A DNA stretch of 42,379 bases, from UHGV virus genome UHGV-1834803; one strand, 5' to 3'. Positions 2,180-37,003 of this stretch are shown here, piece after piece. The notes below the pieces were generated by a model, which was not told the DNA's origin, did not search any database, and worked only from the letters and a program-made list of their open reading frames with translations. The translations under genes were made by a program, and so were the position numbers. Position 1 is the first letter of the stretch; each line of letters begins with the position of its first letter. This DNA is from a virus.

Positions 2180-2196
2180 AAACAAGTTGTTTTCTT
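2180..2196 (-). promoter_or_regulatory. conserved palindromic motif AAACAAGTTGTTT(TCTTA)
   Basis: One of five near-identical copies, each 15-40 bp upstream of a minus-strand start codon. Confidence 0.4.
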
Positions 2197-2458
2197 ATTG
2201 GCTTTATTGTGATGTGGCATAAAAGGGGAGCAAGCTAAACGTAAAGGTGCAAACTCTCTATTTCGGTCAACGAAACACAAGGGCCATTTGGCCCTTGTCA
2301 TTAACACGTTGCTTTACGGACTAGCGGATAAGCGAAGTAGATCGCCAGACCAATGAGGACGCCATCAGAAATGACAGACATCATCTTTCCCGTAAAATCC
2401 ACCAACACCGCCATCACCAGAAGAGCAATGACGGTCACAAGCCGGAATCTCTCAAGCA

Positions 2459-2884
2459 TTAGAGATAAGCATCCAGTGACAACTGAAGCGCCTGGGCGAT
2501 CTTTTTCAGCGCCTGCTCTTCTGGTTCATCAATGCCGTCTTGGTCGGCAATATCAAGGCACAGACACAGTACATCTACTGCATCATCAGTCCCGGCCACA
2601 TCCGCCAGCTCACGTAAAGCCTGGGCATTAGCACGGCGCGGTGAGGCTTCGTATTGAGCGCGGATATTGGCGCTCATCTGGGCAATCTCACCAGCAAAAG
2701 GAGAAAATGCAGGCAGAGCTGCAATTGTTTTCTCAAGAATGGAAATTTCTTTTGCATCGCATGTACCGTTGGCATAGGAGATCATGTACCCACCCCACAC
2801 GGTGGCTTCAACCGCATCACGGTTCTCCATTTTTTTGACTTCGATAACTGCTTTACGAGTTTTCTTTTTGAAGAAACCTAACAT
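2459..2884 (-). CDS. hypothetical protein, possibly TerB-like
   Basis: C-terminal acidic helical segment (DIADQDGIDEPEEQAL) weakly resembles TerB-like domains; by-eye only. Confidence 0.35.
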   Translation of the reverse strand: MLGFFKKKTRKAVIEVKKMENRDAVEATVWGGYMISYANGTCDAKEISILEKTIAALPAFSPFAGEIAQMSANIRAQYEASPRRANAQALRELADVAGTDDAVDVLCLCLDIADQDGIDEPEEQALKKIAQALQLSLDAYL

Positions 2885-2907
2885 GTGTTTTCCTTTTGCT
2901 ATTTGTC

Positions 2908-2925
2908 AAAACAAATTGTTTTCTA
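2908..2925 (-). promoter_or_regulatory. conserved palindromic motif AAACAAATTGTTTTCTA
   Basis: Second copy of the recurring motif, upstream of the start at 2884. Confidence 0.4.
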
Positions 2926-2977
2926 GTTACATAAATTGCTTACGCAACGACGGTCAATGCATATGCACTAACAAACG

Positions 2978-33529: not shown

Positions 33530-34765
33530 TTAACCAAATATTTTTTGAACAACTTCACGAGCCGCTTGCGCAGAAGCTGAAGGGAGTTTGTTAATGAAAG
33601 AACGCTCAATACCTGTCACAAAGTCGCCTCGCATCATTCCAATCTTGGCCGACAACAAAAGCTCACGAGGCCCAATTGGCTGGCTGATAAGGTGTTCTTC
33701 ATATCCATCGCGAACGATACCGGCAAACTTAACCATCTTTTCAGCGTATTCATCCACGATGCCGGCATTTATCAACATGTTGATCTCTGCCTCTTTGCTC
33801 ATGTATTTCACATTCGAAACGATGCCAAAACGTGAAAAGTTCGCGGCGTTCTGGATGTTTGTACCCTGGTACAAGCCGGTTTCATCACCAGAACCGTTTG
33901 TGTTGCCAGTGCCAATGAAAGCAAACCGTTCATGCGGAGTAATGCGACGCCATTCTGGAGTTGCCTCTTTGATGACCAACGCCTCACCTTCCAGCACTGG
34001 CTGATACACGCCAAGAATTTGTGGAAACGCAAAGTCGTATTCATCCGCGAGGTAAACCCAGCCATGCTTCATTGCGAGCGCAAGCAAGCCAGGCTCGAAA
34101 TACGTAGAGCCATCACGCGCCAGAATTTGCCCCGTAACATGTGCCTCTTCCATTGATGCTGTATGTTGGGCACGGATCAACGGACGATTGAGCAAAGCAC
34201 ATAGCTGTGTAGGCAATGACGATTTGCCTGTTCCTGCATGACCCCACAAATAGCCAGGTATGCCAAGTTCAAGCATCATGAAAATATCTTTGATCAGTTC
34301 GAAGTCGCCATATACGTAGCCCTTCTTCACTTCTGGAACGAACTCTGGATACGGCGTATTGACGTTGACGCTAACCATGAGCGGCGTCCCACGTTTTGTT
34401 CCGAGTTCTTCCACCGTTACGTTTAGCAGTTCGTGAGCTGCGACCAGATCTGTCTTGTACTCAACTGTGCCTGTGTAACCAGGGCTACTGGTCAAGCCAG
34501 AAGATTTGGCCATTTCGCTTTTTTGCTCGGCACGTTTAGCTTGAATTGCATCAAGTGCCTTTTTCGATAGCGTTGGTTCATCTGGAAACTGCGTTGTGTA
34601 CATTTTCAGTACGGTGTCAGGATCGGCATCTTTTACTGACTCAGGAATGCCCTCGCAATTACCATTGGCTACATGGGACTTAAAATAGTGAAATGATTTG
34701 CCGCACCACTTGCAAACAAGGTAATCAGAAGGATTTTTTTCATTTTGCAGTGCAGTAGTCGTCAT
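33530..34765 (-). CDS. AAA+ ATPase (CobS/MoxR-like) with N-terminal Cys/His cluster
   Basis: Walker A GHAGTGKS, Walker B VYLADEYD; N-terminal CKWCGKSFHYFKSH...NCE. Confidence 0.7.
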   Translation of the reverse strand: MTTTALQNEKNPSDYLVCKWCGKSFHYFKSHVANGNCEGIPESVKDADPDTVLKMYTTQFPDEPTLSKKALDAIQAKRAEQKSEMAKSSGLTSSPGYTGTVEYKTDLVAAHELLNVTVEELGTKRGTPLMVSVNVNTPYPEFVPEVKKGYVYGDFELIKDIFMMLELGIPGYLWGHAGTGKSSLPTQLCALLNRPLIRAQHTASMEEAHVTGQILARDGSTYFEPGLLALAMKHGWVYLADEYDFAFPQILGVYQPVLEGEALVIKEATPEWRRITPHERFAFIGTGNTNGSGDETGLYQGTNIQNAANFSRFGIVSNVKYMSKEAEINMLINAGIVDEYAEKMVKFAGIVRDGYEEHLISQPIGPRELLLSAKIGMMRGDFVTGIERSFINKLPSASAQAAREVVQKIFG

Positions 34766-34860
34766 GCGTTTTTCCTTTGTTCTCTAATGAGCGTTCAACT
34801 TCTTATATAAATATACCATTAACTATCGTAAGTGGTTACTTATCATTAAGGCTGTTTTAT

Positions 34861-36969
34861 TCACTTCAAAATGATACGAGATAGTTCAGTAACTACAGAT
34901 GAACCAAGACTATCAACGCTCGTTACCAGGGCATGATTTGAGTAAAATCTCTCCGGTGCGTCAGTCATGATGCCAATTGCCATCAAATCAATGTCAGTCT
35001 GCGTTTCAATTTGCTTCGCAACCGAACGCAAATGAGCGTCAAAACCTCTCCCAACAGCCCACGGCGCGCCATCGCTCAGAACAAGCATGATCTTCCTGTC
35101 CTCCAAGCGACCGGAAAATAACGATGCAAGGCTGGCTATGCTTTCACCATCCACGTTATTAAGAAGTGGGAATGTGTAGCCTACGCACCCCATACGTGAG
35201 CGAACTTCGCGAGAATTTGCTTTTTCATTCCAATTTTTGATGATAGGTAGCATTAAAGATTCAAAGCGAGAGAACTCATATTTGATAGCCTTAAGTTCTC
35301 CTGCTGCCATATGACTGCCAAATGTAGTGAAGCCGGTGATAATGTTGGGAACATTTATTCGATCAAGTGCATCGGCGATGGTATATGCACTTGCAAGAGC
35401 TAGTTTTATCGTTTCGCCACTCATTGAACCCGATAAATCAATCACTTGTTGAACACAGGCGTTAACGGCTTTAGATTCTTCTTTTTTACGAAACACGCGA
35501 TCATCATTCATTGTTAATCTGTAGATACTTGAACCATGAATGCGCCCCCGACGCTGGCCAGGTATAAACTGAACTCTGTTTCTGCTTGCTATTGCACGTT
35601 CCAGGTCTTTTGCCAGCGTCGACGAAACACCTGACGAAAGGTGCTTTTCAATATATTTGTCGAAGAGTTGGTTGCCTTCAGGAACGATGCGATAACGGCT
35701 GATTGGATATCCACCTAAATCAATATCGGAGAATGTTTTAATAAGCCGTTTGATATGGGCTTCTGCCTGATCAATCGAGCCGATGAAGTCGTATGAGCGA
35801 TTGTATGGCCTGTATTCGCTTTTCGAGCTTTCTGTTAACTCGCTTTTAATCGTTTCGGATAGCGCATCTTCTGTCATGCCTCCGACTTCATCTTCCATGC
35901 TATCCAACTCCTCTAAAGCCTCTTCCAGACTCATTTTTGACGGAGTTGGAATGTCTGAAGAGCCGTCTTCTGTCGATTTTCTTTTTTCGTGGTCAGTGGT
36001 AAATGATTCTGACGCCGCGTTATCAGAAGCACCAGAATCTGATACCACTTTATCATTTTCTGTATCATCGAATATTGTTTCTGATGATTCAGAATTATCT
36101 GAATCATCACTGTCGTTATTATCATGTTTGTGCTTACTGTGTGATTCTGATTTGATAGATTTGTGATTATCTAACGCTGAGGGTGTCTCATGATCTTCGT
36201 TGTCTTCATTGTTTTCTCCAGAGGCATCCGTCTGGTCAGCGTCTGAAGGATCGGAAGTTTTTCCCGGAGCTGACTCCTTACCTTTGCTTTCACTTTCAGT
36301 GTCTTTGAGGATCTTAGCTATGGTCGCAGCCACCTTTACACAATCCTCGGTGCAAGACATGTTACGCACGGCCACATCGATACCATGTTCTTTTAATAAT
36401 GAAATTGGTTTCTCAATGACAGGCCAATATTCATCCATGAAATCTACGAACGGTGCTTGGCCATCCCAGGCTCTTACAACCGGACAGAGAAAGAAGTTTA
36501 GAAAAAGCGCGCGCTGATCTTTGCCACAATAAGCAATAGCCTCTGAAGCCTTTGGTTTAAAGACTTTTTCGATTATAAGGCGCTGAGTTGCCATCAGATT
36601 ACGTCTTGTTCCGTTAAAGACCTGACCCATTTTTCGCTCGATGAACACGTCTTCTAAGGCATTCCATAGCGACCAGGAAGGAACGCGTCCTTTTTCTCTC
36701 ATTTTGTTGGACACACGAATATCGGTAAACAAAATGTGAGCAACCTCATGATCGAGAAATCCGCGCACAGCATTCATCAATGCCGGTGTTGCGTTATCCG
36801 GGATTGATGGGATGTTTACGAGAATTGGCTCTCCATCATCGTTATAGCGTACATAAGCGTCGTCCCCTCGTTCTGCAACAGGGATGTTTTTACCTGAAAG
36901 GAGAGCGACTACTCGTTTTACACTGTCACGGAAGTCCTGAACCTCTTTGATGGAACGTTTTTTAGACAT
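34861..36969 (-). CDS. von Willebrand factor A domain protein (CobT-like)
   Basis: MIDAS motif DLSGSMSG in the C-terminal domain; central Ser/Asp/Glu-rich linker. Confidence 0.7.
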   Translation of the reverse strand: MSKKRSIKEVQDFRDSVKRVVALLSGKNIPVAERGDDAYVRYNDDGEPILVNIPSIPDNATPALMNAVRGFLDHEVAHILFTDIRVSNKMREKGRVPSWSLWNALEDVFIERKMGQVFNGTRRNLMATQRLIIEKVFKPKASEAIAYCGKDQRALFLNFFLCPVVRAWDGQAPFVDFMDEYWPVIEKPISLLKEHGIDVAVRNMSCTEDCVKVAATIAKILKDTESESKGKESAPGKTSDPSDADQTDASGENNEDNEDHETPSALDNHKSIKSESHSKHKHDNNDSDDSDNSESSETIFDDTENDKVVSDSGASDNAASESFTTDHEKRKSTEDGSSDIPTPSKMSLEEALEELDSMEDEVGGMTEDALSETIKSELTESSKSEYRPYNRSYDFIGSIDQAEAHIKRLIKTFSDIDLGGYPISRYRIVPEGNQLFDKYIEKHLSSGVSSTLAKDLERAIASRNRVQFIPGQRRGRIHGSSIYRLTMNDDRVFRKKEESKAVNACVQQVIDLSGSMSGETIKLALASAYTIADALDRINVPNIITGFTTFGSHMAAGELKAIKYEFSRFESLMLPIIKNWNEKANSREVRSRMGCVGYTFPLLNNVDGESIASLASLFSGRLEDRKIMLVLSDGAPWAVGRGFDAHLRSVAKQIETQTDIDLMAIGIMTDAPERFYSNHALVTSVDSLGSSVVTELSRIILK

Positions 36970-36985
36970 GGCTAATCCTTTGTTA

Positions 36986-37003
36986 TGAAAACAAATTATT
37001 TAC
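36986..37003 (-). promoter_or_regulatory. degenerate copy of the conserved motif (GAAAACAAATTATTTACTA)
   Basis: Fifth, imperfect copy, upstream of the vWA gene start at 36969. Confidence 0.3.

Follow-up and report, generated by a model that had tools for sequence, protein, structure and literature searches.

The window analysed here, a 42,379-nucleotide (nt) stretch of the viral genome UHGV-1834803, corresponds to the part of an SSU5-like phage-plasmid that serves replication and nucleotide metabolism. It shares 98-99 % identity with Escherichia phage Cyrano (pLF82) and CMS-2020a, and ~77 % with Salmonella phage SSU5. It comprises a tRNA cluster, genes for an integrase and a helix-turn-helix (HTH) repressor, cobT/cobS, the DNA polymerase III alpha gene, recombination genes, repA, sbcCD, nrdAB, and thyX. 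Five of its genes, namely cobT, a DUF7238 gene, nrdB, a TerB/TciA-like gene, and one for a hypothetical protein of 189 amino acids (aa), are preceded by the palindrome AAACAA-N-TTGTTT, which is the most abundant control sequence of the SSU5-like phage-plasmid family and which, as we argue below, is probably a dispersed operator of a family-encoded dimeric repressor.

Results

Motif copies in the window

Allowing at most one mismatch, the core AAACAANTTGTTT was found at window positions 2180, 2909, 13141, 24578, and 36989, that is five times versus 0.27 expected, and none of 100 shuffled sequences reached five. All five copies lie on the coding strand of minus-strand genes, on which they read AGAAAACAAyTTGTTTAA, and end 18, 24, 31, 16, and 19 nt before the respective ATG (2161, 2884, 13109, 24561, 36969). 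A first-pass annotation had listed near-identical copies at 2180, 2908, 13138, 24575, and, as a degenerate one, 36986, each 15-40 bp upstream of a minus-strand start; the five sites and their distance to the starts (16-31 nt) were recovered, with four of the coordinates displaced by 1-3 nt. The inverted repeat of 6 bp described there proved to be an exact dyad with an unconstrained centre base. Near-identity, however, holds for the core shared by all five and not for the full 20-mer, which with up to three mismatches matches only at 2178, 13139, and 24576, the copies at 2909 and 36989 having just the core and part of the flank in common. Scored with a weight matrix, the five copies reach 27-33 bits, while the rest of the window does not exceed 12 bits.

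A decayed sixth copy with two core mismatches is inverted in situ with respect to its perfect orthologues (SSU5 82468, pJN2-26 19224). It precedes a DUF4942 methylase-like gene and has short inverted repeats on both sides (CCATTAA / TTAATGG).

Distribution and conservation

The genomes of ~105 kb each carry 18 (Cyrano), 20 (SSU5), and 17 (Klebsiella phage pJN2-26) copies, so that the replicon is studded with the motif far above chance. The background, estimated from 818 kb of DNA from around fliC, mostly of enterobacterial chromosomes and fetched for another purpose, was 0.24 copies per 100 kb; this sample contained no perfect copy and two copies with one mismatch, ~70-fold fewer per base. In a census of all 6-N-6 palindromes, AAACAA-N-TTGTTT occurred 9-11 times per genome and every other at most twice, which makes it the only over-represented palindrome of this architecture. 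A scan of IMG/VR for the exact 19-mer returned at least 120 loci; among the 120 listed, 109 were SSU5-like by BLAST and the remaining 11 were single hits. The motif is also present in three distant relatives reached via a neighbouring gene (L238, L240, and L242).

Copies occupy orthologous positions at terS (two copies), parA, the replicative helicase gene, cobT, nrdB, and a run of small genes, those at terS, parA, and the helicase gene all lying beyond the window. In Cyrano, 15 of the 18 copies are intergenic although intergenic DNA makes up 13 % of the genome (binomial P = 3e-11), so that the motif is far from being equally frequent inside coding regions. Two of the three "coding" copies are situated at annotated 5' ends, with a Shine-Dalgarno (SD) sequence and an ATG just 3' of them. 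An alignment of eight orthologous promoters from Cyrano, SSU5, and pJN2-26 (that of nrdB from Cyrano and SSU5 only) showed full identity in 89 % of the motif columns versus 59 % of the flanking ones, and a -10-like block was conserved as well. The dyad was unaltered in relatives with ~77 % DNA identity or further diverged.

Anatomy and putative promoter setting

We built an anatomy profile from 236 distinct copies, oriented and aligned on the dyad centre. The conserved gene-strand form is AGAAAACAA-N-TTGTTTA(A), a perfect 6-N-6 dyad with arms that are 92-100 % fixed and a random centre base (A.28, C.27, G.19, T.25); its columns approach 2 bits versus less than 0.7 bits elsewhere in the module. 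A conserved AGA flanks it on the 5' side and A(A) on the 3' side, the latter often followed by AAGGAG. Upstream, the profile reads TGn-GATAAT-N6-CA. Relative to the dyad centre, position -20 is T in 95 % of copies (224/236), positions -22/-21 are A in 75-79 %, and about a quarter of the copies have TG at -28/-27; position -13 is A in 75 % and has C or A before it. The best -10-like hexamer begins at -25 or -26 in 109 copies. In contrast to this strict register, the distance from dyad to ATG is loose (16-55 nt, with modes at 19-20, 25-26, and 31). If the conserved CA is taken as the transcription start, the common copy would be centred at about +14, and the dyad would span about +5 to +23, within a short leader that continues directly into the SD sequence.

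Neighbouring copies are spaced by 51 bp in 30 of 41 distinct pairs and by 25 bp in eight. The upstream partner is inverted (AAACAA-N-TTGTTTTCT), lies over the -35 region, at about -38 if the same start is assumed, and is in many cases directly adjacent to a hairpin of the ggcc...ggccTT type. Such upstream copies fall 5' of the predicted start and therefore cannot act in that transcript. The full unit of ~90 bp consists of hairpin, upstream copy, -10-like element, downstream copy, and SD sequence, and recurs before many small accessory genes in a variable region.

Not every promoter of this kind has the same downstream site. At Cyrano ~85818-85880 and in the divergent uvsW/parB region (105062-105143), cassettes with the common upstream part GCCTTTTGTATGTTAT...TGGCTATTATAAT differ in the downstream operator slot, which holds TAAGT-N4-ACTTA at the parB promoter and GCACT-TGGT-AGTGC before CYRAN_93. 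There, the present motif keeps the upstream site and the other palindrome takes the downstream position, suggesting that operators may be used in a modular, combinatorial fashion.

The terS leader has one or two copies, 25 bp apart (Cyrano 49-135, SSU5 56-133, pJN2-26 ~38628), followed by a GC-rich hairpin and a T-run before the SD sequence. This succession of putative promoter, operator, and terminator hints that the late operon might be controlled by antitermination.

Expression in the Cyrano lysogen

For the LF82 (Cyrano) lysogen, the supplementary table of a published transcriptome gives a median prophage background of 9.8 normalised reads (PMC9928086). Genes behind the motif were at background, for instance CYRAN_1 (terS) with 7.1, CYRAN_47 (cobT) with 7.8, CYRAN_58 with 5.7, CYRAN_70 (nrdB) with 12.9, CYRAN_85 with 7.0, CYRAN_87 with 7.1, and CYRAN_101 with 7.5 (PMC9928086); altogether, 14 of 15 motif-preceded genes read 0.6-2.6 times the background median in the same table. 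Genes well above background are mostly encoded on the opposite strand (PMC9928086). The cro-position gene CYRAN_46 is up in macrophage samples, while cobT, just downstream of it and separated by a hairpin and a motif copy, remains low (PMC9928086), which suggests that the motif-bearing cobT unit is controlled separately from CYRAN_46.

The most expressed Cyrano locus in the lysogen is that of the hypothetical gene CYRAN_43 (40268-40822), at ~720 times background (PMC9928086); a small RNA or a moron with strong expression may be concealed there.

Candidate binding proteins

None of the element-encoded proteins examined as candidates could be assigned as the binder of the motif. The HTH protein of the window (37532-37918), which has a weak HTH_19 match and had been suggested for gel-shift assays in the first-pass annotation, is probably not the one: its control region (37281-37531) holds no motif copy, and instead contains a different palindrome, GGTAAGCACTTACC, at 37487 together with half-sites, conserved beside the pJN2-26 orthologue. 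For this reason, it was discarded as the likeliest binder. That SSU5 lacks the HTH gene does not settle the matter, given that it retains both palindrome classes and may have lost the gene.

This other palindrome represents a second genome-wide class, (A/T)ATAGGTAAG-NN-CTTACCTAT (GGTAAG-NN-CTTACC), with 7-13 sites per genome (~10 in SSU5, ~13 in pJN2-26). Its sites are intergenic and found before nrdA, adenine methyltransferase, holin, portal, and tail-fibre genes, as well as beside the HTH gene. The second class is probably the operator set of the HTH repressor, although in SSU5 the sites are present and the gene is not. As RNA, it would form a strong hairpin.

The HTH gene belongs to a module of integrase, HTH repressor, and a 70-aa cro-position gene (window 37913-39016 and 37532-37918), which sits between the tRNA cluster and cobT and is not present in the compared region of SSU5 (42525-42761). 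Since this module is absent and since SSU5 was isolated as a plaque-forming phage, SSU5 may be a repressor-less derivative.

A second candidate, encoded outside the window (CYRAN_114 / SSU5_121), belongs to the FljA family (Pfam PF03614, Flag1_repress, E = 1e-80). It was found in 12 of 12 SSU5-like records, with 66-75 % identity even in Klebsiella elements, and always near uvsW and a conserved protein of 92-101 aa. Its predicted structure (model and fold search) has two tandem Sm/Hfq-like domains and no HTH. Klebsiella hosts normally lack flagellin, and because the protein is conserved in their elements, its target is probably phage-internal. As binder of the present motif it was set aside, being kept only as a minority alternative, on the grounds that fliC leaders from 105 genomes gave no motif match.

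The conserved neighbour of uvsW and the FljA-like gene, CYRAN_117 (92 aa), has high expression in the lysogen and is conserved throughout the records. It appears ribbon-helix-helix-like by eye only, AlphaFold modelled it with low confidence (pLDDT 52), and searches of PDB sequences, Pfam, and PHROGs gave no function; a motif-like sequence at the start of its coding sequence is not conserved. Two small proteins resembling winged HTH domains, CYRAN_37 and CYRAN_123, are expressed at background in the lysogen. The products of the small genes behind the motif were also considered, as a source of an autoregulated binder; this idea was rejected, as no DNA-binding domains were found in them.

Table 1. 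Motif copies and associated features (window positions unless another genome is named; -10-like elements and start are predictions).
Feature	Position	Strand	Sequence, context
Motif copy 1	2178..2195, centre 2186	-	gene strand AGAAAACAACTTGTTTAA; 18 nt 5' of ATG of CYRAN_87 equivalent
Copy 1, orthologues	Cyrano 81278, SSU5 81745, pJN2-26 18510		
Copy 1, -10-like hexamer	2206..2211	-	CACAAT, -25..-20 from centre; not called by consensus scan
Copy 1, putative start	2199	-	A of "CA", from family profile
Copy 1, terminator-like hairpin	2277..2298	-	~90 nt 5' of copy 1
Copy 1, gene behind	1592..2161	-	189 aa, no Pfam family
Motif copy 2	2907..2924, centre 2915	-	AGAAAACAATTTGTTTTG; 24 nt 5' of TerB/TciA-like ATG
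Copy 2, orthologues	Cyrano 80549, pJN2-26 17795		
Copy 2, -10-like hexamer	2935..2940	-	AGCAAT, weak; not called by consensus scan
Copy 2, gene behind	2459..2884	-	TerB/TciA-like, 141 aa
Motif copy 3	13139..13156, centre 13147	-	AGATAACAACTTGTTTAA; 31 nt 5' of ribonucleotide reductase beta subunit ATG
Copy 3, orthologues	Cyrano 70326, SSU5 70219		17/17 motif columns identical
Copy 3, -10-like position	13167..13172	-	CTTGTT, poor; only T at -20 kept; not called
Copy 3, terminator-like hairpin	13192..13210	-	between nrdA and copy 3 cassette
Copy 3, gene behind	11967..13109	-	NrdB
Motif copy 4	24576..24593, centre 24584	-	AGAAAACAATTTGTTTAA; 16 nt 5' of DUF7238 (CYRAN_58) ATG
Copy 4, orthologue	Cyrano 58595		
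Copy 4, -10-like hexamer	24604..24609	-	CGCAAT, alternative AATTAT 3 nt downstream; not called on this strand
Copy 4, terminator-like hairpin	24617..24636	-	directly 5' of copy 4 cassette
Copy 4, gene behind	24136..24561	-	DUF7238
Motif copy 5, degenerate	36987..37004, centre 36995	-	AGTAAATAATTTGTTTTC; 19 nt 5' of CobT-like VWA ATG
Copy 5, perfect orthologues	SSU5 42729, pJN2-26 91040		
Copy 5, extended -10-like element	37014..37022	-	TGcTACATT; not called by scan
Copy 5, gene behind	34861..36969	-	CobT-like, VWA domain
Decayed sixth copy	547..565	+	TAAGAAAAGATTTGTTTAA, 2 core mismatches; just 5' of DUF4942 gene ATG at 535
Second palindrome class	3812-3825, 6027-6040, 15580-15593, 37487-37500		
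Second palindrome class, Cyrano	22451, 26660, 42606, 67886, 77439, 79654, 84623		
FljA-family gene	Cyrano 100780-101301, SSU5 96897-97415, pJN2-26 31722-32252		

Discussion

The motif is, in our judgement, probably a dispersed operator near +14 of a family-encoded dimeric repressor, and as such the main cis-regulatory operator of SSU5-like phage-plasmids. We read it as a double-stranded DNA operator for a dimeric protein that blocks RNA polymerase because the dyad is exact with a free centre, because it keeps a strict register to a -10-like element, because its inverted partner is five helical turns away, because mixed-palindrome promoters exist, and because the genes downstream are silent in the lysogen. 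A dimeric DNA-binding protein encoded by the family would bind the sites, either individually or in a cooperative manner over some five helical turns, and would block initiation or promoter escape by the host RNA polymerase. Some 15-20 transcription units, among them nrdB, cobT, the replicative helicase gene, parA, terS, and many small genes, would thereby be shut down jointly for as long as the element persists as a plasmid prophage. The first-pass annotation had likewise proposed an operator for a dimeric regulator or a promoter element, coordinating five genes. That core idea is borne out by the dyad, the -10 register, the 51-bp partner, the contrast of 89 % with 59 % identity, and the ~70-fold enrichment, and several genes indeed share the motif; its scope was too narrow, with 17-20 copies per element across genome and family, and the HTH protein named there is probably not the binder.

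Several observations weigh against this interpretation. For none of the five window copies did the consensus scan call a sigma-70 promoter upstream; their hexamers at -25..-20 are weak (CACAAT, AGCAAT, CTTGTT, CGCAAT, CTACAT), and for this reason the promoter assignment rests on the family profile and not on the window alone; even in the family, the critical second position of the -10 hexamer is A in only 42 % of copies. The placement at +14 is likewise inferred from that profile. Moreover, the asymmetric flanks (AGA 5', A/AA 3') track the direction of transcription, which a symmetric dimer site does not require. In the lysogen, parA carries a copy yet reads 49.8, ~5-fold above background (PMC9928086), and low mRNA levels there are equally expected of activator-dependent promoters. 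Finally, the operator is invariant across the family, so that co-variation with a candidate protein cannot be used, and no protein could be assigned.

Alternatively, the -10-like element and the dyad could form one positive element, a 40-nt block recognised during lytic growth by a phage activator or an RNA-polymerase-modifying factor. A poor -10 and the lack of a -35 are seen in many copies, all five of the window among them, and these are not called as sigma-70 promoters; the genes are silent in the lysogen as activator-dependent genes would be, and the partner near -38 is at the classical position of a class II activator. Most copies, however, are single and centred at about +14, which is typical for repressors and very unusual for activators. 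Furthermore, the cluster at 93-98 kb of Cyrano has good extended -10 elements (TGn-GATAAT / TGG-TATTAT) that should be self-sufficient, and its genes are nonetheless at lysogen background. We regard positive control as rather unlikely.

A role at the RNA level is unlikely as well. Here, the motif in the 5' leader of the mRNA would be bound by an FljA-type protein, stopping the translation, and hence reducing the stability, of ~20 phage mRNAs. In work of Yamamoto and Kutsukake from 2006, FljA is said to be a translational repressor acting on the 5' untranslated region of Salmonella fliC. The FljA-family match of CYRAN_114 and its occurrence in all 12 records fit such a role, as do its conservation in Klebsiella, which makes a phage-internal target likely, the location of its gene on the strand expressed in lysogens, and the position of the downstream copy, always between predicted start and SD sequence. 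Against this, the fliC leaders of Salmonella, E. coli, and Enterobacter score -16 to -21 versus at least +16 for true sites, with shuffle p values of 0.26-0.43, and the co-occurrence of protein and motif is uninformative, both being family-wide. A single-stranded RNA site would not be expected to form an exact reverse-complement dyad whose centre is free, the leaders form no stable or shared hairpin (z-scores from -0.9 to +1.0), the register is strict to the -10-like element and loose to the start codon, and the inverted partners 51 bp upstream lie outside the transcript. An RNA hairpin or known RNA family was rejected, as there was neither a stable fold nor an Rfam match reaching the gathering score at the sites; across the window, Rfam 15 reported only three tRNAs (41512-41755). 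That the dyad is the target of an FljA-type protein with tandem Sm/WYL-like domains, bound in the form of leader RNA or of the single-stranded non-template DNA in the transcription bubble, seems to us distinctly unlikely. If it were, global silencing of phage-plasmid lytic genes would be the ancestral job of the FljA family, and Salmonella fljA a domesticated phage regulator.

It is very improbable that the copies are merely those of a mobile promoter-terminator cassette, one intergenic module that would spread and drive gene shuffling by recombination, with a palindrome that has no protein partner of its own. Such a cassette would account for the recurrence of the ~90-bp module before small accessory genes in the variable region and for the in-situ inversion of one window copy, and it has a precedent in the PeSL elements of T4-like phages (PMC2839356, PMC4122927). 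The dyad, though, is far better conserved than its surroundings, both between orthologous promoters and in information content, and is unchanged in relatives with ~77 % DNA identity or further removed; this indicates direct selection on the dyad, and the cassette and operator readings are not exclusive.

That the phage-plasmid has recruited a DNA-binding protein of its host, such as IHF or a different global regulator, has hardly any likelihood either. One half of the dyad bears a loose similarity to the IHF core WATCAANNNNTTR (two mismatches, compared by eye only), and no phage-encoded binder is assignable among the candidates. Conversely, the motif is ~70-fold rarer in the enterobacterial chromosomal DNA sampled around fliC, with no perfect copy, its 12 near-invariant positions are much stricter than known IHF or Fis sites, and the exact viral-contig matches listed belong overwhelmingly (109/120) to the SSU5-like family. 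Single-subunit or N4-type hairpin promoters, T4 late promoters, and MotA-type promoters were dismissed, as no matching polymerase or factor genes are annotated and their geometry does not fit.

A repressor operator dispersed over the whole element has well-known counterparts. In the P1 plasmid prophage, C1 operators with the asymmetric 17-mer ATTGCTCTAATAAATTT are dispersed at many promoters. As in P1, one operator is repeated around a plasmid prophage of ~100 kb, and lytic and accessory functions would be held off together; unlike in P1, the site is a 6-N-6 dyad with no sequence similarity to that of C1, and no C1 homologue was seen. The IncP plasmid RK2 has palindromic operators of 12-13 bp for KorA (OA) and KorB (OB), with 7-12 copies at promoters, some at -10/-35 and some cooperative. 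SSU5-like elements resemble RK2 in having at least two genome-wide palindrome classes, which in RK2 have different partners, and the second class thus suggests a two-regulator circuit comparable to KorA/KorB. In contrast to RK2, the sequences differ, most SSU5-like copies lie downstream of the predicted start, and lysogen expression of the element's ParB-like genes stays at background. In geometry, the module recalls lac O1, a dyad in the initial transcribed region with an auxiliary upstream operator on the same helical face: here too, the dyad would lie over the initial transcribed region, the two being centred between about +11 and +14, with an auxiliary site upstream, at ~20 promoters rather than at a single operon controlled by a LacI-family tetramer.

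The relation to FljA and fliC lies in the presence of the same Pfam family in every SSU5-like element examined and, if the predicted start is right, in the location of the downstream copies in leaders, next to the SD sequence; fliC leaders lack the motif, and its symmetry, register, and upstream partners point to double-stranded DNA. The PeSL cassettes, in turn, combine a terminator stem-loop and a promoter in intergenic spacers of T4-like phages (PMC2839356, PMC4122927). A composite module of hairpin and promoter repeated in spacers, especially before small accessory genes, is common to both, and the layout of hairpin followed by motif recurs in Cyrano, SSU5, and pJN2-26, the window hairpins at 13192-13210 and 24617-24636 being examples. 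No PeSL has been described with a dyad operator, whereas here the dyad is the best-conserved part and also occurs before terS, the helicase gene, and nrdB.

While the principle of dispersed repressor sites in plasmid prophages is textbook knowledge, we found in the searchable literature no description of the motif or of SSU5 operators, and no account of lysis-lysogeny control in SSU5-like elements. Such phage-plasmids, which include pHCM2 of S. Typhi, pLF82/Cyrano, and numerous elements from Klebsiella and E. coli, are frequent in clinical Enterobacteriaceae. Antibiotic-resistance genes are carried by the group (PMC9600943). A 19-bp operator marking ~15-20 promoters per element would offer a direct handle on lysis-lysogeny control, a defined regulon, and ready probes for pull-down of the regulator, and the motif is also a simple sequence signature by which to recognise the family. 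We see the finding as useful more than as surprising, mainly because it opens a way into how a clinically common phage-plasmid family is regulated.

Other features of the window

The three consecutive tRNA genes are on the minus strand and correspond to Asn, Thr, and Ser in the Cyrano annotation. An open reading frame of 420 aa (39647-40909, plus strand) runs opposite to most genes and has no Pfam match. Between 20 and 42.4 kb, the window aligns to Cyrano in a patchy manner, with 79 % covered in eight pieces. The RecA/UvsX-like gene (25780-26853, minus strand) encodes 357 aa here and in SSU5, and its Cyrano counterpart CYRAN_55 (55065-57404) is annotated at 779 aa, an extra length that suggests an insertion, possibly an intein or homing element, in the Cyrano copy.

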